Source: an uncultured Planctomycetia bacterium (GTDB taxonomy: Bacteria; Omnitrophota; Gorgyraeia; 2-02-FULL-51-18). From it: 64,000 nucleotides of DNA. Shown one piece after another: positions 3,171 to 21,891 of the stretch. Numbering within the stretch: the stretch's first letter is position 1; every line of letters begins with the position of its first letter. A model generated the notes under the pieces. The model was not told where the DNA came from and searched no databases. It was given only the letters and a program-made list of their open reading frames with translations. Made by a program: the position numbers and the translations under genes. The stretch lies in contig CAZXLF010000005.1 of the NCBI GenBank assembly GCA_964642015.1, forward strand, positions 75,847-139,846, written 5' to 3'.

Positions 3171-3186
3171 GAGTCCTTCTCCTAGT

Positions 3187-5112: not shown

Positions 5113-5689
5113 ATTTTTCCCCTTTATAGTTCAGTGTAACACGGCCGGAAGTCACCTTTTCTATCTGAAAGGAATCTATTGTATCTCCCTCTCTAACATA
5201 AAATACTTTTTGGATTTTCTTATTTTCGATCACCGCTTGCGGATTTTTTCCATCTATGACCGCGACTAAATTAAGATCTTTGAATGCCTCAGAGCTAGTT
5301 TGATTTGAGGCGGTTCCCGAATCAGCGCTTCCTCCTAGCGGTTCAAACACGTTCCTTCTAGAAATTTCGGCAATAAATGCTTGTTTTGACAAAGGCTCTT
5401 TCAAAGCGTTCGCGTCGTCCTGAGATGGGGAAGAAAAGCTTCTAGCATTCTCCCTGACATTATCGCTGGGTTTATAAGGAAATATGAATGTGTATACCAA
5501 AAATGATGCGGATAAAAAAAGAGCTAAAAAAATGATATTCTGCGGGTGAAGCCATTTGACTTTTCGCAAAAGACCTAAAGAGATTTGCTGATGTGGGGCG
5601 TACTCGGAGGCCGATCTCGCATCTTTCTTTTTTTCCTTCTCTCCGGCTCGGATCAGATGGAGAAGTTTTTCCTCTGGTGTCGGGCTCAT
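5096..5689 (-). CDS. GspC/PilP-like secretin-interacting protein (TM plus C-terminal beta domain).
   Basis: It has a single TM helix. The C-terminal roughly 60 aa (LVAVIDGKNPQAVIENKK...FQIEKVTSGRVTLNYKGEKYDL) look like a PilP/HR-type fold. The gene sits immediately upstream of the secretin with a 17-nt overlap. Confidence 0.4.
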   Translation of the reverse strand: MSPTPEEKLLHLIRAGEKEKKKDARSASEYAPHQQISLGLLRKVKWLHPQNIIFLALFLSASFLVYTFIFPYKPSDNVRENARSFSSPSQDDANALKEPLSKQAFIAEISRRNVFEPLGGSADSGTASNQTSSEAFKDLNLVAVIDGKNPQAVIENKKIQKVFYVREGDTIDSFQIEKVTSGRVTLNYKGEKYDLAL

Positions 5690-6507: not shown

Positions 6508-6715
6508 TTTTTATCTGCCGAATCGATAGCCCATCTTTTCTCATTCGACGGATCTTAAGGAGAACATGCACGCTATCTTCGTTAAAATAACGATAACCTG
6601 TTTCAGGACTTCGTGCCACCTCCTTAAAGAGACCATCCCTTAAGTAATATTTAAGAGTGTGAACAGAAAAACCTGTACGGCGCGCTAAATCTTTTAAAAG
6701 ATAGACTTCCTGGAT
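6494..6715 (-). CDS. Small MerR-family HTH protein (DNA-binding domain only) with an apparent non-canonical ATC start.
   Basis: Translated by eye: IQEVYLLKDLARRTGFSVHTLKYYLRDGLFKEVARSPETGYRYFNEDSVHVLLKIRRMRKDGLSIRQIKNELL. AGGAGG lies 5 nt upstream of the ATC. An in-frame TAG sits directly upstream, so no ATG/GTG/TTG start is available. The 3' end overlaps the exeA-like start by 14 nt. It is absent from the ORF track. Confidence 0.4.
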   Translation of the reverse strand: MQEVYLLKDLARRTGFSVHTLKYYLRDGLFKEVARSPETGYRYFNEDSVHVLLKIRRMRKDGLSIRQIKNELL

Positions 6716-6814
6716 AAAAGCCTCCTGCTATCACTCTCTGACCAGAGAGTATATCAAAAAAAGCAAAAATTAACAAAATTATTAAATTTATAGTTATTTA
6801 TACAAAAGGCAAAT

Positions 6815-7336
6815 CTATGGCGAGTACGGGGAATAGAAAACAGAAACGATAAAAGAAGCATCCAGGTTATTAGAACCTATTTGAGACCCAATCGATAATC
6901 TTTCTATTCGAAAACTCGATAACGGTTGATCGAGCTCAAATATAAAGCCTGAAACTTTATCCGCTTGCCCTCGTATCCGTAAATTGATCAATATCTGCTT
7001 AAAAGATTTAAGTTGTTTGACACTTTCGGCGTCGGGGCGTATTTCTAAGACTTCAACATTATTCTCATGAGCGATCGTTTCGATAGACGACAGAATATCG
7101 GATGATTCTTTGAAAAATTTCAATGCAGATCCAGATCCTGACGGAACTGATAGATTCTTTTGATATTGATGGTATTTGAAGATTCTTTTCTGAACGGTAA
7201 TGATTTCTTTGCCCATCTTGGAATAATGATCGATAAAAGGCGAAAGAGCAAATTGATAAAAAAAAGCTAGAATGATAACTATCCCAGTCGCTACAAGAAT
7301 ATACCGTTCTCTTTCTGACAGACCCTTTTTTTCCAT
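6815..7336 (-). CDS. gspM: T2SS protein M / PilO-like.
   Basis: 173 aa with an N-terminal TM helix. Size and position, directly after gspL, fit GspM. Confidence 0.5.
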   Translation of the reverse strand: MEKKGLSERERYILVATGIVIILAFFYQFALSPFIDHYSKMGKEIITVQKRIFKYHQYQKNLSVPSGSGSALKFFKESSDILSSIETIAHENNVEVLEIRPDAESVKQLKSFKQILINLRIRGQADKVSGFIFELDQPLSSFRIERLSIGSQIGSNNLDASFIVSVFYSPYSP

Positions 7337-7361
7337 TTAAATGACCTTGTTCTCTATTATT

Positions 7362-8768
7362 TTAAGAACGCTTCGCACATACGATCTCAAAATCGACAGC
7401 CCCTGCATCGCGCCTGGTTATATAACGCACAGAGGCTTCAAAATCTTTTAAAATATCCGAATGATTTAGACTCGATACAAATCTTAAGAGATCATTATAA
7501 TCTTGCGCTCTTCCGCGTAACTCGATCGTGTTAGATTCTTCATACAAAAAATTTATAAGAGATATATTCTCGGGAAGCAGTTTATGAACTTCATAATAGG
7601 CGTAAACAGCCCTTGGCTGTTTTTCAAAATGATCTTTCAAAACTTCACGAGATCTTTCCATTTCTTCAAATACTTTGGTATCGGAAATAGTACTTTTAGA
7701 CTCGGTCTTTAGATGCCTAAGATAAGACGCTCTTATTTGAAAAATATGGAAAAACGAAACCCCCAACAGAAAAATAACCAAGGCGATCAATGATAAAATT
7801 TTGATTCGTTGATTTATTTCTTTATGTTTTTCCCTTTGTTGCCTTATTTTTTCAGGAATAAAATTAAGAGCGGGCTTAATGTCAGAAACGCCTAAAGCCG
7901 AAATGGGAAAATGTTCGATTTCGGCATTTTCCGGAAGCATGATCTTTTCATCGACCCATTGGGCGGTGTTCAATGGCATCGTTTCACAGACCAATCCCAG
8001 AGAAGACAAATCGGCGCTTGCTGCTTCAGCTTCTCTCTTTGACCCAAAAATGACGGTTTTTTCTATTTTAGAATCCAAATTCTCTTTTTTTAAAGATTGT
8101 ATGATCTGCAGGACCGCTGATCTAAGGTCACTTATCCAATCCGCGTTATTCCTGTCAAGACGCACGCATTTTTCAAGCAAAAGCACCTGATCCTTGCTCA
8201 CTGCCAATTCAGCAAAAAAATGACCCAATTCAATGGACAAAATGGATCCCTGGACAGAAAGAAAATTTCTTTTTGTGACGCAAGCAAGCCCGCTTGTTGA
8301 AAGCGTCACGAATATATTCCGCCTTCTTTTCATGAACGAATCCGCAAAAAAACGTTCTATGACCTTGGCCGGTACGATAACAAGGTGGACATGAGAATAG
8401 TTGTCTTCCGTTTTCTCGATTATTTCATAACCGATGGTCAATTCCTCCGATTGATAAGGCAAATATTTTGATGCTTGGAACCCAAGCATCTTTTCTATCT
8501 CGATCGGATCATGAGTGGGGACTTTCACATATCTGAATGTATAATCGAGAGCTGACAAAAGCACGATAACAGGCTCACCTCGATAGTTTTCCATCCTTAA
8601 GAATTCGTCCACCGCGAGTTCCAGTCTCTTGTCGTCGGAAAAATCTCCTGCTATAAAATGATAAAAAGATAATTTAGGCGGATCGGTCTTGGAGAAGGAA
8701 CATCTTAAAAGTTCAAGCCCCAGATTCTTGGATATTTTCACTACAAAATAATTCTTTAAGCGTACCAC
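7362..8768 (-). CDS. gspL: T2SS protein L (PilM-like cytoplasmic domain, TM, then PilN-like periplasmic domain).
   Basis: 468 aa. The cytoplasmic N-terminal domain is followed by a TM helix (ILSLIALVIFLLGVSFFHIF) and a periplasmic tail. It overlaps gspK. Confidence 0.6.
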   Translation of the reverse strand: MVRLKNYFVVKISKNLGLELLRCSFSKTDPPKLSFYHFIAGDFSDDKRLELAVDEFLRMENYRGEPVIVLLSALDYTFRYVKVPTHDPIEIEKMLGFQASKYLPYQSEELTIGYEIIEKTEDNYSHVHLVIVPAKVIERFFADSFMKRRRNIFVTLSTSGLACVTKRNFLSVQGSILSIELGHFFAELAVSKDQVLLLEKCVRLDRNNADWISDLRSAVLQIIQSLKKENLDSKIEKTVIFGSKREAEAASADLSSLGLVCETMPLNTAQWVDEKIMLPENAEIEHFPISALGVSDIKPALNFIPEKIRQQREKHKEINQRIKILSLIALVIFLLGVSFFHIFQIRASYLRHLKTESKSTISDTKVFEEMERSREVLKDHFEKQPRAVYAYYEVHKLLPENISLINFLYEESNTIELRGRAQDYNDLLRFVSSLNHSDILKDFEASVRYITRRDAGAVDFEIVCAKRS

Positions 8769-9766
8769 TTTAACCGATCCTGGCTTCTTATATAAAATAC
8801 GGTGAGATCTTTTTTTACGCTTCCTGCGGTGCCTCGGACATGAATATTAAAATTATCAGAATCCGCCTTGATCCATCCGAGAGAAATGGTTTGTTTGACC
8901 AATTTTGTTCTTGGGTCATCTGCAACTGACCCTAGGCCTAATTTAGCGGCGATGACACGAGCATCCATATCATCGGAAGAAAAATATTGCCCCCCCTGTC
9001 TATAGTTGAGCACTGATCGAGCGAGATTTTCTGCGTCCATCTCAGTAATATCCAATTTTCCAATACTATTTAAATACTCATCATATGCCGCTTTGAACAG
9101 GCTTCGCAACACATATTCACTGGCCGTATTGATATTGATCTTATCCGTGCCAAGGGTCGTAAACCCTTCTTTTATCTGATCGAGAATATCCTCGTCCAGA
9201 CCGTAAAAACTTTTTACCAAAGCCAATTCATCCAAAACAGAAAAGTCGGATGCTTTGCACTCATACCCAAGCTGGCCCTTATAATAATTCTCCGATTCTT
9301 TATCGAGAGCTTCGGCTCCCCGCCACATTCGGATGTCCTTAGCGCCTAACGCGCTTTGTATTTCGTTAAAACCGCACTCTCTGAGAAATCTTCTGATCAA
9401 GGATTCAGGCGCTTTATTAATATTGATCTTCCCATCTTCTTCTCTTATTCCATAATAGGTCCCATCTTTGTTCTCATAAAAAATGCTCCCTAAAACGCTG
9501 TTTTCTTTGTCTATTTCTATTTTTTTAAAAGCCTCGTTTTTTGCCCATATTTCATTAAGGTGATCCTGTGAACTTTCCCGACCGTCCTGTATCAGACAAA
9601 GCTGTGCCATCCCTATCGCGGATCGAGCTGCCGCATAGGAACGCACTTCATCCAAAGAAGCTGATGCAATCCTGAGCGTTTGAGATACCTGAAAAGCCAA
9701 GCTGATACATACAAGCGTCAATAGAACCAACGCCCAAACACAAATGATCAATACCGATCCCTTCAT
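8756..9766 (-). CDS. gspK: T2SS minor pseudopilin K.
   Basis: N-terminal TM helix. The ININTASEYVLRSL HhH-like motif is typical of GspK. 336 aa. Confidence 0.75.
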   Translation of the reverse strand: MKGSVLIICVWALVLLTLVCISLAFQVSQTLRIASASLDEVRSYAAARSAIGMAQLCLIQDGRESSQDHLNEIWAKNEAFKKIEIDKENSVLGSIFYENKDGTYYGIREEDGKININKAPESLIRRFLRECGFNEIQSALGAKDIRMWRGAEALDKESENYYKGQLGYECKASDFSVLDELALVKSFYGLDEDILDQIKEGFTTLGTDKININTASEYVLRSLFKAAYDEYLNSIGKLDITEMDAENLARSVLNYRQGGQYFSSDDMDARVIAAKLGLGSVADDPRTKLVKQTISLGWIKADSDNFNIHVRGTAGSVKKDLTVFYIRSQDRLKWYA

Positions 9767-9780
9767 TTTTTGTCCGCTTC

Positions 9781-10377
9781 CTATGAGAGATAGAACTTTC
9801 TTTTGAAAATACCGTCCCCGCCTGTCCGCATTTCAATCTCAAGCCAATCGGGCATCTTCAATGGGTTCGACCAGGATTCCGAGACGATCTCCTTGCTGGT
9901 ATCTTTGTCCAAATAACCGTAAGTCAGATGAAACATTTTCACATCATCCAAAAAAATCAAAGCGCCCTGTTCGACAGGGATTTCCTTAAGCGCATCACCT
10001 CTGAACAACGCGTTTCTGTAAATCTTATCCTGCTTAAAAAAATAAACGACACGGGCAAAATGAGGGGACGTCCTTTTGATCTTTCCGTTCAATTCCTTTT
10101 CCCAGCGTTCTTTCAATGTAAAAAATTCGATCCGCGAAGCATCGCCTTTAAAATGACACTGAGTCACAGAATACGGAAATAGCTCTCTTAGATCATCTGC
10201 AAAAACCACAAAAAACCTGAAGAACGGCTCTCTTCGGCGCAAAATTTGGTCCGTTCTTCTGTAACTTCGGATACCCGAATTAAAAGCGCCTGACAGAGAA
10301 ACGACTACTATCGCTGATAGGGACAAAGCGATCAATATCTCAATTAAAGTCAAACCCGAGTTTTTCCTGAGTCTCAT
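9781..10377 (-). CDS. gspJ: T2SS minor pseudopilin J.
   Basis: Prepilin motif G|LTLIEILIALSL with E at +5. The start was moved to the internal ATG at 10377, because the ORF-track start at 10449 adds an implausible 24-aa leader. Confidence 0.7.
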   Translation of the reverse strand: MRLRKNSGLTLIEILIALSLSAIVVVSLSGAFNSGIRSYRRTDQILRRREPFFRFFVVFADDLRELFPYSVTQCHFKGDASRIEFFTLKERWEKELNGKIKRTSPHFARVVYFFKQDKIYRNALFRGDALKEIPVEQGALIFLDDVKMFHLTYGYLDKDTSKEIVSESWSNPLKMPDWLEIEMRTGGDGIFKRKFYLS

Positions 10378-10759
10378 CTCTTTTTTCCACAAGTATCGAT
10401 CGAACGATGATCGTCTCTTCTTTCCCTTCACGCATGGGATGCATTTCAAGTTTAAAACGGTACGTATCGAAACCCGGCGTAGAAAGATCCCAATCTTTAT
10501 CGAAAAAAGCTTTCACATGAACATTATCTTCTCGGGAGTTTATCGCCGAAACTTTTGCCAATACTTCTTCTCTCCCTTTCTGGTAATTCAAGTCGACCCA
10601 TTCCAACGAATCGATACTGGTTAATTGCAACTCACTGGCGTAAAGTGAGAGTTTTGAGGAGAAAGCGATGGTCTGAAGCGCGATCACGACTCCGAAAGCC
10701 AATAAAGCAACGGCGATCATGACTTCGAGAAGAAGAAAACCTCTTGAATCAAGCCGCAA
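10340..10759 (-). CDS. gspI: T2SS minor pseudopilin I.
   Basis: Prepilin motif RG|FLLLEVMIAVALLAF. 139 aa. Confidence 0.7.
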   Translation of the reverse strand: MRLDSRGFLLLEVMIAVALLAFGVVIALQTIAFSSKLSLYASELQLTSIDSLEWVDLNYQKGREEVLAKVSAINSREDNVHVKAFFDKDWDLSTPGFDTYRFKLEMHPMREGKEETIIVRSILVEKRDETQEKLGFDFN

Positions 10760-11210
10760 GTCTAAAATCTCCGAAAAAATCCTTCGAAGTCACTTTTCTG
10801 CTGTTCTTATTACTATCCTCAAACGTAATCTCGGCTGGGTCCAGACTCCCATCAGGGTAAAAAACGACGTTCGGAAAAGAACTTTTAATTGAGATCTGGT
10901 ACGGCAACTGTTTAAAAAGATGCTTCTCGTTCTGCTGCTCATACTCAAGCCAATAGCTTTTTTCGATGGAGTTGATCACCAGTTTGACCGGGTTCCCTTG
11001 GCTTCGGGCTCTCGAGCCTGCATAGCGCGTCACACTCATGAAATCTCTGACCACGCTGTCCAAACTTTCCTCTGATAGCCTGCCCGATATTCTGGGAAGA
11101 AGAAGCGCCGTGAAAATCCCCAAGATCGTGATGACCACGAGAAGTTCAATATATGTAAAACCGGAATTCCGCAAAAAATAGTTCTTATTTGAGTTCGCCG
11201 GCCATTTCAT
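10749..11210 (-). CDS. gspH: T2SS minor pseudopilin H.
   Basis: Prepilin motif SG|FTYIELLVVITILGI. The start is probably the second Met (MKWPANS...). Confidence 0.7.
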   Translation of the reverse strand: MKWPANSNKNYFLRNSGFTYIELLVVITILGIFTALLLPRISGRLSEESLDSVVRDFMSVTRYAGSRARSQGNPVKLVINSIEKSYWLEYEQQNEKHLFKQLPYQISIKSSFPNVVFYPDGSLDPAEITFEDSNKNSRKVTSKDFFGDFRLAA

Positions 11211-11638
11211 TATTCGGCTTTTGAAGAAGAGGACTGCCAATTGCCGATATCATCCTCATCCCCCTCTTCGCCGTCCGGACCTGTGGAAAATACATCATAA
11301 TCATTGCTGTGTTTACCTGGCTTTAGATAATGATAACGATTGCCCCAGGGGTCGACCGGTTTCTTTTTAAGGTAGGGGCCTTTCCAATTCTTGGCTGAGC
11401 TAGGCTGTGAAAGCAATGCCTCCAACCCTTCTTCGGTGGTCGGAAGTTTGCCATTGTCCACTTCATAAAGGTCCAATGCGAGAGGAATTGCTCCTGAAAC
11501 ATCGCTGCGCGCCACCTCCGTGCGCGCCTGCTCGCTACGGCCTAAAAGTCTCGGCATCACCATGGCGGCCAGCACGCCGATGATAATGATCACGAGCATG
11601 AGTTCGATCAGCGTAAAACCCTTGCTATTTTTAGCCAT
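11210..11638 (-). CDS. gspG: T2SS major pseudopilin G.
   Basis: Starts MAKNSKGFTLIELMLVIIIIGVLAA. The DPWGNRYHY...PG...YDVFSTGPDG motif is diagnostic of GspG. Confidence 0.9.
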   Translation of the reverse strand: MAKNSKGFTLIELMLVIIIIGVLAAMVMPRLLGRSEQARTEVARSDVSGAIPLALDLYEVDNGKLPTTEEGLEALLSQPSSAKNWKGPYLKKKPVDPWGNRYHYLKPGKHSNDYDVFSTGPDGEEGDEDDIGNWQSSSSKAE

Positions 11639-11649
11639 TGTATTATTCG

Positions 11650-12855
11650 CTATCTTACCAAAAAATTAATTTCAAAAATAGGCAAAAGCATGGATATCAC
11701 GATGAATCCTACGACCAAGCCGACAATGAGGATCACCATCGGTTCGAGTATTTTGGCAAAAATTTTTAACGATCCGTCCACTTCGCTTTCATAATCCTCA
11801 GCGATCCGCGAAAGGGTCTGATCCAGATTCCCCGTTTTTTCGCCGACCATGATCATCTGAACGGCCATTTCGGGAAAAATGCCAAGTTGTTTCAATGCTT
11901 CAGAAAAACTAGCTCCACCGAATATATTTTCCAGGATCATCTTCATCTTTTGTTTCAAGAACTCATTGTCAACGATGGAGATCGATGTCTGAAGAGCGCT
12001 GGCAAGAGGAATACCGCTCGAATAAAGAAGTGATAATACGCGTGATAGCCGGCCTATCTGAGCTTTAAATAAAAGAGGTCCAAAAAAAGGAATTTGAATT
12101 TTGACCCTATCATATATTGATCGATTTTTCACATCTTTCAATAACGTCATTGCCAGAGCCCAGACAATGCCCAAAAATAAAACGATGAAAAAACTGTTCT
12201 TTATAAGAAACGAGGAGATAAAAATAAGTATTTGAGTCGGGAGCGGCAATGCTTGTCCCATCTCTTTGAATACCATTACGATCTTAGGGACCACAAAAAA
12301 GAGCAGAGCAAAAATGGTCAAAAATCCCGTAAATATCACAAAAAACGGGTAGATCAGACTGTCCACCAGAGATCTCTTGTAATTTTGGGCCTTTTCCAAA
12401 TATTCAGACAGCCGTTTCAGTGTTTCCTTAAGTTTTCCGGAAGTCTCACCGGCATAGACCAATGCAATATACAGACTCGAGAAGATATTCGGATATTTTT
12501 TCATGCTATCCGATAGAGAACTGCCTTCCTTGATATCGCGGATCATATCTATCAGGATCGTTTTAAGCCCTACGCTCGGATTATTTTTAGAAAGCGAGTT
12601 CAGCGCCTCCATCACCGTAACGCCCGAATCGACAAGAGTAGCAAGCTGAGAAGTAAAAAGGATAAGATGCGCAGGTTTTACTTTTTTTGGAAAAAAAGAA
12701 AGATGAAAATTTTGAGCCGTTTGTGCGTTCACTTCCAAAGGAAAATAGCCTAATTGTTGGAGTCGAAAAACCGCGTCCGAGACGGATTCCGCCTCTAAAT
12801 CTCCTTGGATGATCTGCATAGGATCTTGTTTGGCTTTATAGACAAAGCGTGTCAT
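11650..12855 (-). CDS. gspF: T2SS inner-membrane platform protein F.
   Basis: 401 aa polytopic GspF/PilC-family sequence with two repeated cytoplasmic domains. Confidence 0.9.
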   Translation of the reverse strand: MTRFVYKAKQDPMQIIQGDLEAESVSDAVFRLQQLGYFPLEVNAQTAQNFHLSFFPKKVKPAHLILFTSQLATLVDSGVTVMEALNSLSKNNPSVGLKTILIDMIRDIKEGSSLSDSMKKYPNIFSSLYIALVYAGETSGKLKETLKRLSEYLEKAQNYKRSLVDSLIYPFFVIFTGFLTIFALLFFVVPKIVMVFKEMGQALPLPTQILIFISSFLIKNSFFIVLFLGIVWALAMTLLKDVKNRSIYDRVKIQIPFFGPLLFKAQIGRLSRVLSLLYSSGIPLASALQTSISIVDNEFLKQKMKMILENIFGGASFSEALKQLGIFPEMAVQMIMVGEKTGNLDQTLSRIAEDYESEVDGSLKIFAKILEPMVILIVGLVVGFIVISMLLPIFEINFLVR

Positions 12856-12858
12856 AGA

Positions 12859-14580
12859 TTATTCTGAAGCTGTTTCATTCTCGATCTGCGTGACTCGAAA
12901 CACTTCCATCAATGTCGTCAGACCGGAAAACGCCTTCAGGATACCGTCTTCCCTTAACGTCTTCATGCCTTGGCTGATCGCGACCTTTTCGATCTCCTGG
13001 CTTGAGGCGCGGCGGATAATAAGTTTCCGGATGGCTTCGTTCATCAGGATCACTTCATGGATGGCCATGCGTCCCCTATAACCAGTAAAACGGCATGCTT
13101 CACAGCCGCGTCCTTCCAAAAAATCGGCTTTGGATAGATCAAGGCGGGTATCTTTTATCCTATCCAACCATCTTTGTTTTGCTTCGCCGGAAAGACGCTC
13201 TTTACAATCCGGGCAGACCGTGCGGACCAGCCGCTGGGCGACTATACATTCAAGCGATGAAGCCACCAAAAAAGGCTCCAACCCCATATCCAAAAGTCTC
13301 GTGACGGCCCCCGGGGCATCATTCGTATGGAGCGTCGAAAGCACCAAGTGCCCGGTCAAAGCGGAGCGGATAGCGATCTCGGCCGTTTCGATGTCGCGCA
13401 CTTCCCCGATCATGATCACATCGGGATCATGACGCAAGATATGACGCAAAGCCAAAGCGAAATCAAGACCGATCTGCGGACTGACTTGAATTTGATTGAT
13501 CCCGCGTAATTGATATTCGACCGGATCTTCGGTCGTAACGATCTTGACCGATGAAGAATTCAACTTTGCAAGACAAGCGTAAAGCGTGGTGGATTTTCCG
13601 GCTCCGGTCGGACCGGTTACGAACACGATCCCGTGTAGTTTTTCGATCGCGTGTTCCAACTTTGCTCGGCTGTCGGTAGAAAGCCCTAATTTTCCGATCT
13701 CCAAGAAAAGTCCGGAGCTCAAGATGCGGATCTGAACCGATTCTCCAAAAATGGTCGGGATCGTCGAGACGCGCAGGTCCAGTTCCTCTTCATTCACTTT
13801 GATCTTGATGCGCCCGTCTTGCGGTAAGCGGCGGTCCGCAATATTCATTTTCGCCATGATCTTGATACGAGACACGATAGCAGGCTGAAAATAGCGCACA
13901 GTTTCAGGGACCGGTACTTCATAAAGCAGGCCATCAATGCGAAAACGGACTCTCAACTGCTCTTGGAACGGTTCTATATGAATATCTGTCGCGCGTTGTT
14001 TGACGGCCTCCGATAAGACCTGATTAACGAATCGAATGATCGAAGCTTCATTTGCCATCGACTCGATATCTTCGGCATCTTCATTGGCCTTTTCCATCTC
14101 CAAGACGCCTTTCTGAGCGATGATCTTTTCGACCGTCTCGGCGCCGACCCCATAATATTTGCGTATAGCTTCCTCAATTTCGATCTCACTCGCCAAGGCG
14201 CCTTCCACTTCCAGCTCTAAAAAAAGACGGAGGTCGTCCAAAATACGGGTATCCATAGGGTCCGCCATGGCCACCGTCAAGCAATGATTCTCGAATTTGG
14301 TGGGGATCACTTTATAATGGCTGACAAATTTGGCGGGAACTTTTTGAATAACGGAAGCATGGATATGCTTTCCTTTCAAATGCACGTAAGGAATATTCAA
14401 CTGACGAGCTAAAAGCGAGAAAACTTTTTCTTCAGAGGCAAAACCTAATTGTACAAGTGCCGTACAAATCAGCATCCCTGTCTTTTTCTGTTCCCGAAGA
14501 CCACGGTCAAGCTGTTCTGAAGTAATGACTCCGTTCTCTACTAAAATTTGCCCTATTTTGATGTTACTAACAGTAGTCAT
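12859..14580 (-). CDS. gspE: T2SS assembly ATPase E.
   Basis: GspE N-terminal domain. Walker A is GPTGAGKSTTLYA. A C-terminal tetracysteine motif is present (CPDC...CEAC). Confidence 0.9.
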   Translation of the reverse strand: MTTVSNIKIGQILVENGVITSEQLDRGLREQKKTGMLICTALVQLGFASEEKVFSLLARQLNIPYVHLKGKHIHASVIQKVPAKFVSHYKVIPTKFENHCLTVAMADPMDTRILDDLRLFLELEVEGALASEIEIEEAIRKYYGVGAETVEKIIAQKGVLEMEKANEDAEDIESMANEASIIRFVNQVLSEAVKQRATDIHIEPFQEQLRVRFRIDGLLYEVPVPETVRYFQPAIVSRIKIMAKMNIADRRLPQDGRIKIKVNEEELDLRVSTIPTIFGESVQIRILSSGLFLEIGKLGLSTDSRAKLEHAIEKLHGIVFVTGPTGAGKSTTLYACLAKLNSSSVKIVTTEDPVEYQLRGINQIQVSPQIGLDFALALRHILRHDPDVIMIGEVRDIETAEIAIRSALTGHLVLSTLHTNDAPGAVTRLLDMGLEPFLVASSLECIVAQRLVRTVCPDCKERLSGEAKQRWLDRIKDTRLDLSKADFLEGRGCEACRFTGYRGRMAIHEVILMNEAIRKLIIRRASSQEIEKVAISQGMKTLREDGILKAFSGLTTLMEVFRVTQIENETASE

Positions 14581-14644
14581 TGGGATAGGATCAGAATCTT
14601 AACATATTTTTCTAACCAATTTTTACAAAAATTAAATAAATATA

Positions 14645-14660
14645 TAAAATTATACCATAT
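14645..14660 (-). promoter_or_regulatory. Candidate sigma70 promoter with extended -10 (TGGTATAAT on the minus strand) for the gspE operon.
   Basis: AT-rich 130-nt region upstream of gspE. The minus-strand hexamer TATAAT is preceded by TGG and lies about 65-70 nt upstream of the gspE ATG. Confidence 0.35.
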
Positions 14661-14729
14661 AAAATCTGTAAATACCCTGATTTTAGGATGAAGAGATAAT
14701 AAGTCTCGGCGATGAGATCATATGGCTGC

Positions 14730-15029
14730 TCAATGCGGCTTGTTTTTCTCAAACCAATTCATGATCTGCCAGCTTATGCCATCAGAATATTCATGGTCCA
14801 ATCCGCCCAATATCATGAGCTTTATGGGATACTGCTGGTTTGTCAGAACACTTTTCATATATTCCGCTTGGCCGGGGTCGACAAGATGATCGTTCTTCCC
14901 ATGTAGAATAAGAACAGGAATGCGCCGACTTGAGGATGGGTCGGGACGGGCATGGTTTTCTAACCATTGATAGGAACCCGCGTGGCCTGCATGATAAAAA
15001 ATTGACCTTTTCCTGGGTGCACGGTGCCT
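14730..15029 (-). pseudogene. C-terminal remnant of an alpha/beta-hydrolase-fold enzyme, with no start codon.
   Basis: A 100-codon open frame bounded by TAA upstream and TGA downstream. It translates to ...RRIPVLILHGKNDHLVDPGQAEYMKSVLTNQQYPIKLMILGGLDHEYSDGISWQIMNWFEKNKPH. This is a hydrolase C-terminal region with no N-terminal half or initiator. Confidence 0.5.
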
Positions 15030-15049
15030 TTAGCCGGAAGGTGTGTTAT

Positions 15050-15562
15050 TTATGTGGCATTTATCTTTAATCCCGCCCGCTTGCATTCATAAAGAAAATC
15101 CGTTACTGACACATCGGTATCGATCCTTTGAGATTTGCCGGATGCTTTAACGACCAAAAAAGTAGGGTAGCCGGTAATTCCGAACTTTTTCATTAACCGG
15201 CTCTCTTGGTCGCCATCTATCTTTACCTTGACGACCGATCTTAGCGCGCTGGTGCCGCGAGAAGACCAAAGAATGTCCCTCGTGAATTGTTTACAATAAT
15301 GGCACCATGTGGCATAAAAATAAATGACGAACGCCTCACCGGTGATCTTTTGTTCTTCGACTGCTTTTTTATAGCCCGTCGAGTTTTCAAACCACGGATA
15401 GGATTTGCTTAACACCGGAGCAGGAGAGCTGGTCACGATCGGTCCTGAATCGCTCGGTGGATCCTTGCTATAGATGACCAATGTATCGTCATCTTGCGCA
15501 GCCAGAGCCAGTGCGGAGAAAAAAATCATGACGATAAAGGTCATGGCCGTTCTTTTAAACAT
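15050..15562 (-). CDS. Secreted thioredoxin-fold protein (TlpA/ResA-like).
   Basis: Signal peptide plus the WCHYC CxxC motif. 170 aa. Confidence 0.75.
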   Translation of the reverse strand: MFKRTAMTFIVMIFFSALALAAQDDDTLVIYSKDPPSDSGPIVTSSPAPVLSKSYPWFENSTGYKKAVEEQKITGEAFVIYFYATWCHYCKQFTRDILWSSRGTSALRSVVKVKIDGDQESRLMKKFGITGYPTFLVVKASGKSQRIDTDVSVTDFLYECKRAGLKINAT

Positions 15563-15635
15563 GATGCACCGTTGATGGTTTCATAAAAACTAATATACTA
15601 GACGCAGTTCGGTATACGGTATTTAAAAATATCTA

Positions 15636-15860
15636 ATTGCGGCGCGGTCCTCTCCCCCATTTGCTATATTCGACGAGGGGTTACTCTCGTTAGGACTCGT
15701 CGGCCGGAAAACTATATTCGGCCGAACCGCACCCCCTCCCGCGCACGTCGTCTGCGGCAGGCTTAAGGAAAGTTCATTTTTATCTTCAGCCGCAGAACCG
15801 AGGGGTGATGTGATTTATTAAGAACCCTCGGCTCCTGGGTCAGGGACGTTTCACTTTTTA
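15636..15860. ncRNA. GC-rich structured intergenic element, unassigned (candidate ncRNA or cis-regulatory leader).
   Basis: A 304-nt non-coding gap whose GC content is far above the flanking sequence. Perfect inverted repeats: CGACGAG/CTCGTCG, TCGGCCG/CGGCCGA and CCGAGGG/CCCTCGG. Direct repeats: CTATATTCG x2, CGAGGGGT x2 and a C5-TC motif x2. Confidence 0.3.
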
Positions 15861-15866
15861 TTGTTA

Positions 15867-16370
15867 TTATTTAATCGCCCTTAATAAAACTCTCCATTCG
15901 CCCATGGCTTTCTTATTTGATACGCGATCCAGAACCTCCGCACGAAAAACATAAATTCCAGGAGGATCTGTTTTTTCAAGCGTAAAATCAATGGCCGGGT
16001 CTAGCATTACAAAGCCTCTTTTTTTCATAATATGTTTATGGACATGCTGGTCAATTTGCTTCATAATTTTTTCGTTTTTAGGATTAATAACAAATAAGCT
16101 GCCTATCAAATCTGTACTTCCAAGTTTATTAAGGTCAAATCCTGATACCACGATACTAATATAAATTGTTTTATTAGGGCCAATCTCGTGAACTCTCTTA
16201 ATATGAATTGGATGTTCAGGACGAGTCGAAATCCATTCTTTTATATAGTCTGGAGTGTCTGCAGTGGCAACATAAACCGTTAAATTTGGCCCTGCTTCCA
16301 ATGAATAACCCGATGCAGGGAGAAAAACAAGACTTGATAAAATTAATAAAATTCGAATTAAGAAGATCAC
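15867..16370 (-). CDS. Small secreted protein, candidate second Rhs immunity protein.
   Basis: Signal peptide. AT-rich. Its start overlaps the upstream ORF's stop, and it lies downstream of the rhs C-terminus. Confidence 0.4.
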   Translation of the reverse strand: MIFLIRILLILSSLVFLPASGYSLEAGPNLTVYVATADTPDYIKEWISTRPEHPIHIKRVHEIGPNKTIYISIVVSGFDLNKLGSTDLIGSLFVINPKNEKIMKQIDQHVHKHIMKKRGFVMLDPAIDFTLEKTDPPGIYVFRAEVLDRVSNKKAMGEWRVLLRAIK

Positions 16371-16888
16371 GGTCTTCCACTTACTGCTACACGTATTTGA
16401 ACTGATTTATCTAATTTCGAAATCTGAGCATCAGGTTCTAAAACGGTTATCTTTACATACAAATTATCTGAGTTTCCTTTATACGGAATTGGAAACTCAT
16501 ACATTGAGAATTCTTTATACCTATCTCTTTTGTTTTCGGAACCAAAATAAGCTATTGGTTTTTCCACTATTACAGACTCTAATACGTGTATATCATTATA
16601 GAGTTCTATTAATAATCTCCCTTTGTAAATATAATCGATAGGAATACTCTCGGTATCTGAATAAAAACTAATCTGATAAATATCGTGATACTTCGCATTT
16701 AATTTATAGATTCGGTTAAAACCTTTTTCTGATAAATTAAAATTATCTTGGACAATGGACTTGTACAAATCGACCTTCGGAGCGATTGAGTTAAAGAAAT
16801 GTGCTAATCCTGGCTGGGAAGATATATACTTAAAACTGATTAAAAGAAGAATTACTGATATTAAGAAAAAGGATTTTTTATTAATCAT
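16367..16888 (-). CDS. Small secreted protein, candidate cognate Rhs immunity protein.
   Basis: Signal peptide. About 30% GC. The start codon overlaps the rhs stop (16888), the classic toxin-immunity arrangement. Confidence 0.45.
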   Translation of the reverse strand: MINKKSFFLISVILLLISFKYISSQPGLAHFFNSIAPKVDLYKSIVQDNFNLSEKGFNRIYKLNAKYHDIYQISFYSDTESIPIDYIYKGRLLIELYNDIHVLESVIVEKPIAYFGSENKRDRYKEFSMYEFPIPYKGNSDNLYVKITVLEPDAQISKLDKSVQIRVAVSGRP

Positions 16889-19800
16889 CAGCCTGAATTA
16901 CGCTGTATATCTAAAAGTAAATAATAAACCTCTCTTAACCTTTCCGCAAAATCTTGGCAATTATTCTTTTCTTTTCCATCCAATCCAAACAACGAAAAGT
17001 CTCCGGTTCTCACGATTTTCAAGGCCTCTCTCATAACATCATCGTTATAATGCCTGTTGTCTGTTCTCTCGTATTGAGATGGGTCTTCGTTGTAAAAAAG
17101 ACCGTTCGGTCCGAAGCCAACATTTGATGGTTGTCTTCCATCTTCAAAAAATCCTTGTTCATGACTCAATTCAATATTGTTCCAATCTAAAACGTCATTG
17201 TTAATTGCAATTGGAACATCGCTCAATTTTCTTTTGGCAAAATAAAATAAACCAAATGGGTCAATAAAGCTAGTCGGGTTGTTTTTTACATATATAAAGA
17301 AATTAACGCCCCCTATAAATTTTGCTGGGTCTTCAGTAATAAACCTCCCTACAGATGGATTATAGTATCTATTCCTGTAGTAATAAAGGTTCGTTTCATT
17401 ATCCCACTGTCTTCCCGTGAACTGGAACTCATTATTCACAGAGCCTGTCTTGGATCTTGTATCTCCGAATACATCGTACGTATAGGTGCCGACAGATGTG
17501 CCGCTCAAGTTCGTGAGCATGCTCACAGACCCTAGGCCGTCGTAGATATAATAGGTATCCTGCGCTCCGGTACGCAGCGAAAGGGTCTCATCTATCCTCG
17601 GCCCATGGATATAAGACCTCTGAATATTGTCGGCGCTATTGGTCTCAAAGAGCGTCTCGAAGCCGTCGTAGTAGGTCCTTGTGACCTTGGTATTGACGCT
17701 CTTTTCTACCCTTCTCCCCAGCCCATCATAGGTATAGGTATCGGTATTGGTGCCTTGAGTGGCTTGTTTCAAGCGGTTCTCAAAGTCATAGGTGTAGTTT
17801 CTTGTGACAGCGTTGTTGGTGTTCTTCTCAGAGATCAGATCCCCGTTGGCGTCGTAAGAATAGAGTTTATTTTTGGAGGTGAGGAGACGGTTGGCGGCAT
17901 CATAGGTGTAAGTGTCGGATACTTTGCCGTTCTTCTTTAAAGTAAGACGATTGCCGACACCGTCATAGCTATATTCGAGCTTTGTTCCCGCGGGATAAAC
18001 CACAGAAGTAAGTCTATAGTCATTGTCGTAGGTGTAAGTGTGTGTGCCTTCATTATCCATCAAGGACAGTCTGTTGCCTACGCTGTCATAAGCATAGGAG
18101 AAGCTCGCGGTATTGAGATTTGAGCTTGTGTTTTTGTAGATGAGACTGGTGAGTCTATTGGCATTGTCGTAGGCATAGGCGGCTTGGATATTATTCGGAT
18201 AAGTAAGCAGCGTTCTCCTGCCTCCCGCATCATAGGCATAATTAAATACCTGGTTCTTCGGCGTCGTGAGAGACGTAAGCCGGTTCATGACGTCATAGGC
18301 ATATGTAGTCGTCCCGACGGTTGAAACCATCGTAGCTGTGTTCCCCACCGCATCATAGGTATACGACATTGTCTTGCCTTTCGGGAAAGTCACCTGGGAA
18401 AGCCGATTGAGCTTGTCATAAACATACTGTGTAAGTCCTGTGGCATCGGACATCGAGGCAAGATTTCCCGCGGCGTCGTAAACATTCGTCACAGTGGACG
18501 CGTCGGGATAAGTCGTCGCAAGAAGCCGGTTCACGGCGTCATAAGAATAACTTGTTTTATTTCCATTGGCGTCTGTTCTTGAAATAAGATTGCCCACGTT
18601 ATCGTAAGCGAATTTTGTGATGTTACCCAACGCGTCCTGCTCGCTGACCTTTCTGTCAAAAGCATCGTAGACGAATGTGGTAAGACCGCTGTTAGCGTCC
18701 TTGACGCTCAAAAGATTTCCGACATTATCATAGGTAAGCGTCGTGATAGCGCCCATAGGATCTTTGCTTGTGATCAACCGGTCAAGCGCATCATAAGTAA
18801 AAACGCTTTGATTGTTATCCGCGTCCGTCACCGAAAGCACATTTCCGTGAGCATCATACGTGAACGTCGTGACGTGATTCATCGCATCGGTGATCGTCGA
18901 AGGGTGGCTGGAAGCATTGACATTGCCCTGGTCCGAGCATGAACTGCATCCGCTGTCTCCGGATCCAAGCGGCGCGCCGTAAGCGAATTTCGTCATGTTG
19001 CCGTTGGGATCCGTCACGCTAAGAAGACGGTCATCATCGTCATAAGTCATATTGGTGGATGAGCCGTTGGCGAACTGGATCTTCAATATCCTATCACCGG
19101 CGTCATACGTAAAAGCAGTCGTTCTACCCAGAGTGTTCGTGACCGAAAGAAGCCGGCCGACGACATCATAGTTGAAGCTTGTGGTGTTCCCCAGGGCATC
19201 TGTCTGAGACACGAGATTCCCATAACCGTCATAAGCGTAGGACGTCGTATTGCCCAAAGGATCAGTCTGAGTTAGAAGCTCATCCAGATTATTATAGGTA
19301 GAAGTCGTGATGTGTCCCGAAGCATCTGTCAGTTTGGTGACATTTCCGTGGGAGTCGAAATCACGGCTCGTGACATGACCATTGCGGTCTGTTATCGACT
19401 GCCAGAAATTATAAGAGCTGTTATAAGAATAGGCCGTGATGTTGCCAGAAGAATCGGTATTCTGATTAAGGTTCTGATCTGAACCATAAGCCAAGGTCGT
19501 CGCCCTCCCTAACGCATCTGTCTTCTGTGTCATGAGGTTCGTATTGGGATCATAAGAATATTTCCACACACCACCCGTGGGATCCAAAGCTAGCGTGCCA
19601 AGACCGATCTTAAAATATTCGTAACTCCAATTATTTTTCAGCTGATCGGTCATCGTCGAAGTGCCGAGCAAATTGTTATAAGAAAATTGAATCGTGGAGC
19701 CGTCGGGCTTGACTTCTTTGATCACCTGGTCAGTACTATTGTAAGTATAGTTGGTGGCATAGCCCATCGCGTCCGTCACAGTTGTGATATTATGCGGATC

Positions 19801-20685
19801 AAACGGATCAGTGTAGCTATAATTAACTTTTCTATTTAATGGATCTTTGACCGAGATCAAATTGTTCAATAAATTATCGTAATTATAAGTCCAGATTCGG
19901 TTCAACGGATCGGTCATCTGGCTTATTTTGCCGTTGGAGCCATAAGTGAAATTCAAGCTTCGTCCTAAGTCATCGCTGATGGAATTTTTGAAGCCGTTCG
20001 CATCATAACTAAATTTGATCGAATGCCCGCTTCGGTCGCTTATAGAAGTAAGACGTGTGATAAAATTTTGATCGAAATGGTAGGTCGTTCCATGAGGTTT
20101 TGCGTAAGCAAAAGTTCCTTGGAGCGGATCCCCTCCTGTCGAATACCACGAGACATTTCTTTGGCCATCTGTAAAAACCACCGGACCCGGAACGATCTGC
20201 GTATCGGTCAACAATAGAAAAGTAAGGAGTGAGCTGTCTTGATCCCTTACGGTCACCGATGAGCCAGCTTTCATGGTTCCGCTGATCACAATAAAATTTG
20301 TGATAAGTTCAATATCAAGTGTTGAAGTCCAACCCGCGCCGAATACGCCGCTAAAACCGATCTGATTCGAATAACTGCGGATCAGCTGAAGCGAAAAACC
20401 ATTTCTTGATGTGCCGGGTCCCGGGATCTTGACATCTGTCACAGGAATGTAGAGCTTGCCGCCGGTAAGCAGTACCGGATCTACAGGGCAAGTGGTATCA
20501 ACCGGAGGGTTAAAACAATTTGGACAAGACGGAGGGCAATCTTTAAGATTATAAGGTTGAGCAGTAGTAAAAGAAGTGGCGGTAGGGCAACCAGCGGGCG
20601 GTGATTGATTGGCCATCGCAAAATTCTGCAGGCCGAATGTCAGAACACAAAGAAAGCTGATGAACTTAAGGGAACGGTTTTTCAT
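16888..20685 (-). CDS. rhs: Rhs/YD-repeat polymorphic toxin with a Sec signal peptide and a variable C-terminal toxin domain.
   Basis: Signal peptide MKNRSLKFISFLCVLTFGLQNFAMA. Dozens of YD repeats (YTYDAHGNVLSVTD, YDALDRLITSKD...). The Rhs core end reads YYNPSVGRFITEDPAKFIGGVNFFIYVKNNPTSFIDPFGL, followed by a 116-aa tip. Confidence 0.9.
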   Translation of the reverse strand: MKNRSLKFISFLCVLTFGLQNFAMANQSPPAGCPTATSFTTAQPYNLKDCPPSCPNCFNPPVDTTCPVDPVLLTGGKLYIPVTDVKIPGPGTSRNGFSLQLIRSYSNQIGFSGVFGAGWTSTLDIELITNFIVISGTMKAGSSVTVRDQDSSLLTFLLLTDTQIVPGPVVFTDGQRNVSWYSTGGDPLQGTFAYAKPHGTTYHFDQNFITRLTSISDRSGHSIKFSYDANGFKNSISDDLGRSLNFTYGSNGKISQMTDPLNRIWTYNYDNLLNNLISVKDPLNRKVNYSYTDPFDPHNITTVTDAMGYATNYTYNSTDQVIKEVKPDGSTIQFSYNNLLGTSTMTDQLKNNWSYEYFKIGLGTLALDPTGGVWKYSYDPNTNLMTQKTDALGRATTLAYGSDQNLNQNTDSSGNITAYSYNSSYNFWQSITDRNGHVTSRDFDSHGNVTKLTDASGHITTSTYNNLDELLTQTDPLGNTTSYAYDGYGNLVSQTDALGNTTSFNYDVVGRLLSVTNTLGRTTAFTYDAGDRILKIQFANGSSTNMTYDDDDRLLSVTDPNGNMTKFAYGAPLGSGDSGCSSCSDQGNVNASSHPSTITDAMNHVTTFTYDAHGNVLSVTDADNNQSVFTYDALDRLITSKDPMGAITTLTYDNVGNLLSVKDANSGLTTFVYDAFDRKVSEQDALGNITKFAYDNVGNLISRTDANGNKTSYSYDAVNRLLATTYPDASTVTNVYDAAGNLASMSDATGLTQYVYDKLNRLSQVTFPKGKTMSYTYDAVGNTATMVSTVGTTTYAYDVMNRLTSLTTPKNQVFNYAYDAGGRRTLLTYPNNIQAAYAYDNANRLTSLIYKNTSSNLNTASFSYAYDSVGNRLSLMDNEGTHTYTYDNDYRLTSVVYPAGTKLEYSYDGVGNRLTLKKNGKVSDTYTYDAANRLLTSKNKLYSYDANGDLISEKNTNNAVTRNYTYDFENRLKQATQGTNTDTYTYDGLGRRVEKSVNTKVTRTYYDGFETLFETNSADNIQRSYIHGPRIDETLSLRTGAQDTYYIYDGLGSVSMLTNLSGTSVGTYTYDVFGDTRSKTGSVNNEFQFTGRQWDNETNLYYYRNRYYNPSVGRFITEDPAKFIGGVNFFIYVKNNPTSFIDPFGLFYFAKRKLSDVPIAINNDVLDWNNIELSHEQGFFEDGRQPSNVGFGPNGLFYNEDPSQYERTDNRHYNDDVMREALKIVRTGDFSLFGLDGKEKNNCQDFAERLREVYYLLLDIQRNSG

Positions 20686-21891
20686 TTAAAAGCCCTCCGC
20701 GGACTGCAAGGCATCGGGATTGTTCTTCAAGATAGCTTTGTACCTTTGGATCGTTCTCAAAGATTCTTGGGCTTCCTCGTATCGCTTTTCACTCAAAAAG
20801 TCGTCTTGTTTGACGCTTGAAAATTCCTGTTCGGATCTGTCGAGGTCCCTTAGATAAAAATAGATCCTTCCTTTCCTAAGATGCGCTTCTGAAGAATAAC
20901 CTTTTATCTGGGACGCCTGGTCAAGCAATGCGAGAGCTTCTTTTGGTTTCTTGAGATCGTAGTCGATATCGGCCATCTCCATCATGATCTCAGCGGTCAT
21001 CTTGCCATCTTTTAGAGCATTGTCAGCGTAATTAAGCGCTTGCTGAAGCCGGTCCGTCAGCGTGTAATCATTGCGAAAAGATTGGATGACCTTCACGGGA
21101 TTAAAATCCGCCTCGAACATTTCCCGCGCTTTGGCGAATTGATGAAGCTGCGAATAAAGATCGCCTAAGCCATTCTTATCGTTTACTTGAGTAAAATAGG
21201 CTTCTGCTTTCTTAAAATCCCCTTGCGCCATCGCAACATAACCGAGTCCTGAAACATCATGGGCTTTCTGGAAATAGACGGCGGCTTTTTCGTAGTGTCT
21301 CACGGCCAGGAACACAAGTCCCATACCGCTGTCATCTTTCGCCAAAGTGAAATTGCGCGTCGCCGCGTCAAAATCTTTTTCTTTTAACGCGGTCAGGCCG
21401 AGGCCTGTATAATCCTGGATCCTCTGGAAACAATTTTTGGCCTCTTTTGTGTTATTTTTGGCAAGCGCGATAAGACCCAAGCCCGACCAATCATTGGCTT
21501 TTGAAAAAGCGTCCCGCGCATTTTGCTCATCCTTGAGCGCTAAGTAGGTAAGGCCGAGGCCGCGGTTGTCATTCTTTAAAAGAAAGTGTTTTAGAGCTTC
21601 TTGATATTCACGCCTTTTCAGTCTACAAAGCCCCAGCCCTGAAAGGTCATTGGCCTTTAAAAAGTGGCTCTCCGCTTCATAGGGTTTATTTTGGGCGAGC
21701 ATGACCAGGCCGGCGCCTGATTCATTCCCTATTTTAGAATAAAGCTCCAGCGCTTCATTGAATTGATGCTTGGTGAACGCCAAATACGCGCGTGTCTCCT
21801 CTCCCCCTTCAAAGCCCAGCACGAACGCGGTAGAAATAATAAGCGATATCAAAAAGATCAATTTCAATCGTGGTCTATTCATGGCGCGCAC
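20686..21891 (-). CDS. Secreted TPR-like repeat protein (seven roughly 34-aa repeats, each containing SGLGL/TGLGL).
   Basis: Signal peptide. The repeat pattern is F.KAND.SGLGL.AL....Y..A...F. Its stop abuts the rhs start. Confidence 0.7.
   Translation of the reverse strand: MRAMNRPRLKLIFLISLIISTAFVLGFEGGEETRAYLAFTKHQFNEALELYSKIGNESGAGLVMLAQNKPYEAESHFLKANDLSGLGLCRLKRREYQEALKHFLLKNDNRGLGLTYLALKDEQNARDAFSKANDWSGLGLIALAKNNTKEAKNCFQRIQDYTGLGLTALKEKDFDAATRNFTLAKDDSGMGLVFLAVRHYEKAAVYFQKAHDVSGLGYVAMAQGDFKKAEAYFTQVNDKNGLGDLYSQLHQFAKAREMFEADFNPVKVIQSFRNDYTLTDRLQQALNYADNALKDGKMTAEIMMEMADIDYDLKKPKEALALLDQASQIKGYSSEAHLRKGRIYFYLRDLDRSEQEFSSVKQDDFLSEKRYEEAQESLRTIQRYKAILKNNPDALQSAEGF

Follow-up and report, generated by a model that had tools for sequence, protein, structure and literature searches.

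When an Rhs toxin gene is followed by two small secreted genes, does the second one belong to the toxin now in place, or is it an immunity gene left over from an earlier toxin? This question is raised by a locus in a stretch of 64,000 nucleotides from an uncultured bacterium of the Omnitrophota (contig CAZXLF010000005.1, positions 75,847 to 139,846 of the forward strand; the whole stretch is hereafter called the window). Here, an rhs gene is directly followed on the minus strand by two tandem open reading frames (ORFs), ORF1 and ORF2, encoding 173 and 167 amino acids. The original prediction described the pair, correctly given as two secreted proteins of about 170 amino acids, as candidate immunity genes, the second possibly orphaned from a previous toxin tip. 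Our analysis led us to favor, with moderate confidence, a different view of the second gene: the 3′ end of rhs, ORF1 and ORF2 would form one exchangeable toxin cassette, in which ORF1 would provide immunity and ORF2 may contribute auxiliary protection. The features on which this view is built are the following:

16888-20685, minus strand: Rhs/YD-repeat protein of 1265 aa (ORF coordinates; Pfam RHS_repeat and DUF6531; TIGR03696)
16891-17247, minus strand: Rhs C-terminal toxin tip, 119 aa after DPFGL (47-sequence alignment; GC 0.361)
16367-16888, minus strand: ORF1, 173 aa, ATG start, candidate cognate immunity protein (next gene after the tip family)
15867-16370, minus strand: ORF2, 167 aa, GTG start, secreted Ig-like/E-set beta-sandwich protein (139 relatives; AlphaFold2 model)
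15867-17450, no strand: low-GC island from the Rhs core/tip junction through ORF1 and ORF2 (composition profile, per-gene GC and GC3)

A Low-GC Cassette Comprising the Toxin Tip, ORF1 and ORF2

Composition sets these genes apart from their surroundings. The guanine-plus-cytosine (GC) fraction is 0.301 in ORF1, 0.355 in ORF2 and 0.361 in the Rhs tip, as compared to 0.471 in the Rhs body, 0.45-0.49 in the flanking genes and 0.442 in the whole window; likewise, GC at third codon positions (GC3) is 0.27-0.33 within the island and 0.52-0.54 outside it. The island begins in the junction between the Rhs core and the tip and stops exactly at the stop codon of ORF2, which is the 3′ terminal gene of the cassette. 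It marks a horizontally exchanged cassette, in which the tip, ORF1 and ORF2 were acquired together. The genes are also closely packed: at the rhs/ORF1 junction, TGATG, the last base of the rhs stop codon (TGA) is also the first base of the ORF1 start codon (ATG), and 4 nt (GTGA) are common to the end of ORF1 and the beginning of ORF2. Both the very low GC and the overlaps suggestive of translational coupling had been pointed out originally, and both were confirmed.

The N-termini were evaluated by a crude scan combining Kyte-Doolittle hydrophobicity with a search for -3/-1 signal-peptidase sites. Each of ORF1 and ORF2 has one N-terminal hydrophobic segment with candidate signal-peptidase sites and no second hydrophobic span; a scan of this kind does not distinguish a cleaved signal peptide from a signal anchor, above all for ORF1. 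As there is no cysteine in the first 35 residues of either protein, neither has a lipobox, in agreement with the Sec-signal-like, non-lipoprotein N-termini first proposed. Both ORFs are real genes, since they have 38 and 139 relatives, respectively, and the AlphaFold2 model of ORF2 reaches a mean predicted local distance difference test (pLDDT) score of 91.3. A six-frame search of the whole window with hidden Markov models (HMMs) found one tip, one ORF1 and one ORF2, with no further copy of any of them, and no orphan tip or Rhs-core fragment elsewhere, so that the absence of a second toxin tip accompanying ORF2 is as first stated. The two ORFs were also compared with each other, as had been suggested, and were found to be unrelated: the candidate explanation that they are diverged paralogs was ruled out by a BLASTP E-value of 0.016 over 40 residues and an hhalign probability of 1.4%.

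The Same Trio in a Second Rhs Array

The only close relative of ORF1, protein P0002 (52% identity), is encoded on contigs in which Rhs orphan cassettes are lined up in arrays (L005-L009). Contig L005 (JGI 3300000574 contig, 1-10062) contains at least five orphan cassettes of Rhs C-termini, which differ from one another in the small ORFs that follow, and the same array is present in L006-L009, L019 and L020. In one of these cassettes, an Rhs C-terminal fragment with the tip is followed by an ORF1 homolog and then by a 180-aa ORF2 homolog. The full trio therefore recurs in one other contig type, an unrelated and independent array of Rhs orphan cassettes. Between the window and L005, identity is 67% for the tip, 52% for ORF1 and 54% for ORF2, so ORF2 has diverged to an extent similar to its neighbors. 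The overlap of 4 nt between ORF1 and ORF2 is also there, as TTGA in L005 versus GTGA in the window, the NTGA pattern being kept. In L005, too, ORF2 is the last gene of the cassette, since 96 nt separate the ORF2 homolog from the Rhs fragment that comes next. Moreover, the two ORF2 proteins are reciprocal closest relatives, with 54% mutual identity versus at most 36% to other family members. Because the trio and its overlap are kept in L005, the two ORF2 proteins are reciprocal closest relatives, ORF2 has the GC of the island and the window holds no extra copy, ORF2 is best regarded as a component of the cassette. A single capture of ORF2 into a cassette lineage, followed by co-inheritance, is the simplest history for these sequences.

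L005 contains in addition a second, distant member of the tip family (4663-5610), with the motif N-C-Q-D-Y. It is followed by one 171-aa lipoprotein, 24% identical to ORF1, and by no ORF2.

These results bear directly on the original proposal that ORF2 is an orphan immunity gene, retained from an earlier tip whose place was then taken by the present module of tip and ORF1. Loci of the rhs type are known to contain orphan cassettes, L005 being itself an array of them, and two ORF1 paralogs in tandem follow one tip in three other loci of this toxin family (L050, L065 and L087); strictly, an ancient orphaning that preceded the split between the window and L005 would still fit the data. Nevertheless, this explanation needs a displaced tip that is not seen. 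The search for an orphan Rhs C-terminal fragment upstream of ORF2, which had been recommended, returned none: the start of ORF2 overlaps the stop of ORF1, which leaves no room for one, and there is no other tip or Rhs-core fragment in the window. The low GC of ORF2 is common to the tip and ORF1, the trio has been kept as a unit in L005 with ORF2 proteins that are each other's closest relatives, and none of the ten other ORF2-family loci examined lies beside another toxin. We consider it highly improbable that ORF2 is an orphan immunity gene. What remains of the proposed immunity pair is its first member, for which the evidence is presented below.

The Rhs Protein and Its Toxin Tip

The Rhs protein starts with a Sec-type signal, MKNRSLKFISFLCVLTFGLQNFAMA with NQ after the cleavage point, as judged from crude signal-peptide features. 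It matches Pfam RHS_repeat (E=4e-118, 22 matched stretches) and contains a DUF6531 domain. The Rhs-associated core ends in FIDPFGL, and TIGR03696 (Rhs_assc_core) matches residues 1-32 of the query stretch before the tip. The protein thus combines YD/RHS repeats with a core whose terminal DPxGL-type motif marks where the variable C-terminal toxin begins.

Relatives of the tip were collected by a profile search, which gave 12, and by a metagenome scan, which gave 151 loci; the best 80 of these were kept, and they comprise 68 distinct tips. All 68 distinct tips among these best 80 of 151 loci form the C-terminus of Rhs proteins or Rhs fragments. Other carriers of the tip family also have signal peptides, for instance a 1265-aa Rhs protein in L041. 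In an alignment of 47 sequences, the invariant residues are His29, Asp36, Gly44, Asp69 and Asn96-Cys97-Gln98-Asp99, the histidine standing ahead of the cysteine and the cysteine lying in an N-C-x-D-(F/W) motif. The tip was read as being of the permuted NlpC/P60 type because the histidine precedes the cysteine, as in those enzymes, and because of weak matches to LRAT and PPPDE: Pfam LRAT matches 6 of the 47 tips (best E=8e-4) and Peptidase_C97/PPPDE matches 4 (best E=1e-3), all of them below threshold. In one tip relative, the LRAT match covers profile positions 81-115 of 120, at the end that contains the Cys motif, with 18.5 bits as compared to a cut-off of 24.3. In the Pfam search, neither the tip of the window nor the family consensus gave a match, no Pfam or NCBIfam model matched the tip at family threshold, and sequence and profile searches of the PDB returned only spurious weak matches. 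An AlphaFold2 model built from a 13-sequence alignment was poor (pLDDT 53.7), with moderate confidence only for the helix at residues 97-117, which begins at Cys97; a Foldseek search with this low-confidence model gave a meaningless result. Taken together, motif order and family matches suggest that the tip is probably a permuted NlpC/P60-like (LRAT/PPPDE-like) Cys-His envelope toxin, with His29 and Cys97 as the putative catalytic residues.

The closest counterparts in biology may be the permuted NlpC/P60 effectors Tox-Act1 of the Salmonella type VI secretion system (T6SS) and TseH of Vibrio cholerae, which are phospholipases acting from the periplasm; the immunity protein of Tox-Act1 is membrane-associated (PMC12994826). 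The tip resembles them, and more distantly LRAT/HRASLS, YiiX and PPPDE, in having a putative catalytic His before the Cys, a Cys that opens a C-terminal helix (as placed by the low-confidence model) and belongs to a motif of the N-C-x-(D/H)-F/W type, a small domain of about 120 aa and a partner that is exported or membrane-associated. Exported partner proteins at the cassette of the window would fit toxins of the periplasm-acting Tox-Act1/TseH type. The tip differs from the Tox-Act1, TseH and LRAT families in that no sequence match is significant, the best being that of 18.5 bits, and from Tox-Act1 and TseH in that its carrier is a Sec-exported Rhs protein and not a T6SS effector, and its model has a pLDDT of only 54.

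ORF1 as Candidate Immunity Protein

All loci that had been retrieved were searched with HMMs for the tip, ORF1 and ORF2. Among the 55 distinct metagenomic loci with at least 600 nt downstream of the tip, an ORF1-family gene directly follows the tip in 34. In several of the others, the next gene encodes a divergent 171-aa lipoprotein that has an FPPxDxY-type motif in common with ORF1. Furthermore, for 25 tip-ORF1 pairs, the two distance matrices are correlated (Mantel r=0.72), with none of 2000 permutations as high; mean identity is 22% for ORF1 and 43% for the tip, ORF1 being the faster to diverge. ORF1 is, in other words, a small downstream gene that is tip-specific and co-varies with the tip. 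Its 38 distinct full-length relatives all have an N-terminal hydrophobic segment, and in many of them this segment is longer and resembles a transmembrane segment. The family motif is H-x2-H-L...P-x-D-L-Y-x-P-I-V. No Pfam or NCBIfam model matches ORF1 at family threshold, and PDB searches gave only spurious weak matches. Since the gene follows the tip in 34 of 55 loci, co-varies with it in distance and diverges faster, which is the standard signature, ORF1 looks like the cognate immunity protein of the tip, exported or membrane-anchored, which would neutralize the toxin. The first half of the predicted immunity pair is in this way supported.

In three loci, two ORF1 paralogs follow one tip in tandem (L050, 2511-3618; L065, 1014-2138; L087, 2118-2977). 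Immunity duplication, or orphan immunity of the ORF1 type, therefore occurs in this toxin family, albeit not in the window.

ORF2 Belongs to a Widespread Family of Secreted Beta-Sandwich Proteins

In the public (NCBI) annotation of the source genome, ORF2 is a 65-aa protein called from an internal ATG (P0004). The 167-aa ORF2 with its GTG start is the correct gene and the annotation is truncated, because homology extends over residues 4-165 and the N-terminus includes a signal peptide. A word-indexed protein search with ORF2 found no relatives; the family was missed because the 90% cluster to which ORF2 belongs is represented by the truncated 65-aa call. Among representatives of clusters at 50% identity, an exhaustive search recovered 139 relatives, with E<1e-10 for 65. 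Most family members have about 165-175 aa, and those aligned (alignment A5) have typical signal peptides. In P0022, the ORF2-type domain is fused to tetratricopeptide repeats (TPR). In other proteins, it is combined with an unannotated domain of about 230 aa; this fusion partner lies at the C-terminal end in P0026, P0028 and P0039, and at the N-terminal end in P0057 and P0063. Neither the partner nor the ORF2 domain is covered by a Pfam or NCBIfam model.

The AlphaFold2 model of ORF2 is a beta-sandwich with seven predicted strands and one short helix. Foldseek returned 53 PDB matches with E<=1e-3, and all 50 of the matches listed are beta-sandwich domains. They include the CARDB domain 3idu, the fibronectin type III (FnIII) domain of RbmA (4kkp), the macroglobulin (MG) domain of alpha2-macroglobulin (2p9r), RhoGDI and NPC2/ML, with E-values of 2e-5 to 1e-3, probability of about 1.0, TM-scores of 0.4-0.5 and 8-15% identity. 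The ORF2 profile also weakly matches the last strands of RbmA (E ~1e-3). No specific named domain (CARDB, MG2, RbmA-like FnIII) matches ORF2 at threshold: the best Pfam match in the family is MG2, found in 5 of 47 members at E=1.6e-3, well below gathering level, and the ORF2 sequence itself matches neither Pfam nor NCBIfam at family threshold. According to its model, ORF2 is a secreted protein with an immunoglobulin-like (Ig-like)/E-set beta-sandwich, from a widespread uncharacterized family; the likeness to E-set/Ig-like domains such as CARDB, RbmA FnIII, MG, RhoGDI and NPC2/ML is one of fold class and carries no functional assignment.

To place the family in its genomic contexts, a scan with a 7-sequence alignment was used, and ten other ORF2-family loci were examined, from metagenome-assembled genomes of Omnitrophica, Gammaproteobacteria, Deltaproteobacteria, Ghiorsea and Thermoanaerobaculia and from metagenome contigs. 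Their neighbors are purine, proline and biotin genes, dehydrogenases, a GGDEF-EAL gene and an IS91 transposase; no tip, ORF1, Rhs or other toxin gene was found among the neighbors examined. According to the original prediction, its proposal would fail if the ORFs were conserved housekeeping periplasmic proteins that related genomes contain without rhs. This applies in part, namely to ORF2 at the level of its family, but neither to the closest relative of ORF2 nor to ORF1. In L103 (922-2905), the ORF2 relative P0025 (about 36-40% identical) adjoins an IS91-type transposase and a phage-type integrase gene, which hints that members of the family can be mobile.

ORF2 could accordingly be a neutral or selfish passenger, that is, a member of a common secreted family that one cassette lineage picked up by chance at its 3′ end, that recombination has carried along since and that plays no part in the biology of the toxin. 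The family, a large one, is otherwise unlinked to toxins, one relative lies next to the transposase and integrase genes just mentioned, and ORF2 is rare among tip loci, being confined to one sub-lineage of the tip family. However, decay or loss would be expected of a passenger, whereas ORF2 is still full length and confidently foldable across approximately 46% amino-acid divergence, the overlap of 4 nt at its start is conserved (GTGA, TTGA), and its divergence is close to that of its neighbors (54% identity for ORF2, 52% for ORF1 and 67% for the tip). A mere passenger is for these reasons unlikely, although it is the first of the alternatives to be considered.

Genomic Neighborhood and Possible Delivery Route

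The cassette lies within one co-directional supercluster on the minus strand (3187-21891), which contains, in this order, a TPR protein, Rhs, ORF1, ORF2, a secreted thioredoxin and a set of genes resembling a type II secretion system (T2SS):

20686-21891, minus strand: TPR protein
15050-15562, minus strand: secreted thioredoxin
12859-14580, minus strand: GspE
11650-12855, minus strand: GspF
11210-11638, minus strand: GspG
8756-11240, minus strand: pseudopilins
7362-8768, minus strand: PilN/L-like protein
6815-7336, minus strand: M-like protein
5689-6507, minus strand: ExeA-like AAA protein
5096-5689, minus strand: GspC-like protein
3187-5112, minus strand: secretin

The T2SS-like cluster is complete, co-directional and adjacent to the Rhs gene with its Sec signal. 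Given this adjacency and the signal, delivery of the Rhs protein by Sec and the T2SS is plausible, as in the Xanthomonas bacteriocin Bcn-A. In X. perforans, the activity of Bcn-A depends on the T2SS gene xpsD and requires its ORF2 and ORF4, deletion of its ORF3 lowers activity, and immunity comes from ORF5 only, whose product has a predicted inner-membrane location (PMC7259588). Both loci combine an Rhs-family toxin with several small downstream ORFs, and the T2SS dependence established for Bcn-A would here be suggested by adjacency and the Sec signal. Bcn-A has four downstream ORFs and the window has two, and the two loci are likened by locus description, not by the sequences of the ORFs.

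By analogy, ORF2 might be a toxin accessory, a secreted beta-sandwich protein that aids the tip in receptor or substrate binding, in activation or in export by the neighboring T2SS. There is a precedent in the accessory ORFs that follow the Bcn-A gene of Xanthomonas (PMC7259588), and the Rhs protein of the window has a Sec signal and is encoded immediately ahead of the complete, co-directional T2SS-like cluster. In addition, the fold class of ORF2 (CARDB, FnIII, MG, RhoGDI/ML-like) is typical of binding modules, and ORF2 moves with the tip and not with the Rhs body. On the other hand, 40 of the 42 tip loci with enough downstream sequence carry no ORF2, and the ORF2 homolog of L005 is part of a promoter-distal orphan cassette, for which no more than a tip and its immunity gene would be expected. 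We find the accessory role doubtful, and rank it behind that of a passenger.

Two further observations concern the surroundings of the cassette. The mature N-terminus of the Rhs protein (residues 30-70; 20500-20685 of the window, minus strand) is rich in Cys and Pro (CPTAT...CPPSCPNC...TTCP), and the gene of a secreted protein with a thioredoxin fold lies downstream of ORF2, at a distance of about 300 nt; the two may be linked through the handling of disulfides in the periplasm. The spacer that separates ORF2 from the thioredoxin gene (15563-15866) has 300 nt, a GC of 0.48 and several G+C-rich hairpins. It showed no Rfam match, no repeat and no canonical or convincing terminator, and its fold z-score is only -1.7; it contains nothing demonstrably functional.

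Comparison with Known Rhs and WapA Cassettes

The locus shares with the RhsA/RhsI and WapA/WapI cassettes the Rhs repeats, a core that closes with DPxGL, a variable and AT-rich tip behind it at the C-terminus, and a tightly linked small downstream gene that co-varies with the tip. It also resembles orphan rhs-CT/rhsI modules, as the same module occurs as an orphan cassette in another genome. Differences are found in the carrier, in the families and in the number of genes: the Rhs protein of the window has a Sec signal, lies beside a T2SS-like cluster and is in no PAAR/VgrG context; its tip and ORF1 families have no Pfam or NCBIfam model; and there is a third co-inherited gene, ORF2, which is not an immunity paralog. 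Overall, the cassette is of the typical polymorphic-toxin type and is made from unannotated families, its only non-standard feature being ORF2.

A Proposed Role for ORF2 in Envelope Protection

From gene structure, composition, homology and context statistics, we infer the following for the enzymatic class of the tip and its site of action, for the binding and neutralization of the tip by ORF1 and for the function of ORF2. The Rhs protein, exported by Sec, would carry a Cys-His tip of the circularly permuted NlpC/P60 type (as in LRAT, PPPDE, Tox-Act1 and TseH), which would attack the envelope, the probable target being an acyl or amide bond in a membrane lipid or in the cell wall. Exported protection would then be needed, because an Rhs protein with a Sec signal would cross the periplasm of its own producer, and sister cells would be targets as well. 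ORF1, with its translation coupled to that of rhs, would be exported or fixed to the inner membrane at its outer face, where it may bind and block the tip. ORF2 would have been recruited once from the widespread secreted beta-sandwich family into one sub-lineage of the cassette, and co-inherited since then in translational coupling with ORF1. In the weakest step of this proposal, it may act as an auxiliary, tip-specific factor of envelope protection.

Several results count against this proposal. Regarding the tip, the assignment to an enzymatic class comes from motif order and sub-threshold matches (18.5 versus 24.3 bits), its model has a pLDDT of 54 with an uninformative fold search, and the PDB profile searches were empty. 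Regarding ORF1, 21 of the 55 tip loci have no recognizable member of the family, and some of these 21 encode instead small membrane proteins of other kinds or lipoproteins with about 295 aa. With respect to ORF2, only 2 of the 42 distinct tip loci that have at least 1200 nt downstream contain the gene, so the toxin family in general does not need it; its relatives elsewhere are in unrelated or housekeeping contexts; and no known immunity protein is found among its top 50 fold matches. Nevertheless, we rank auxiliary protection first among the roles considered for ORF2, because the gene is tip-linked, exported and conserved along with its translational coupling; passenger, toxin accessory and orphan immunity follow in this order.

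A more specific form of the proposal is two-layer immunity to a lipid-targeting Rhs toxin delivered by Sec and the T2SS and not by a T6SS, in which ORF1 would block the enzyme and ORF2 would protect its substrate or sequester its product. We regard it as a speculative scheme and very doubtful as a whole. If true, ORF2 would be a RhoGDI/ML-like beta-sandwich recruited from a housekeeping periplasmic family, for example sequestering lysophospholipid. To our knowledge, immunity at the level of the product has not been described for polymorphic toxins.

The findings extend the repertoire of polymorphic toxins by an unannotated Rhs tip family, with at least 68 distinct environmental members, and by its partner family, ORF1. 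The features of the tip suggest that it may belong to the recently recognized lipid-targeting group of permuted NlpC/P60 enzymes, and the Rhs protein with a Sec signal beside a T2SS-like cluster is a candidate for T6SS-independent Rhs delivery. For genome annotation, the public 65-aa call for ORF2 is an error, which homology corrects, and the locus advises caution, as it should not be taken for granted that the second of two small secreted genes behind a toxin is an orphan immunity gene. Should ORF2 indeed function in protection or in the action of the toxin, this would be the first clue to what the proteins of its family do.

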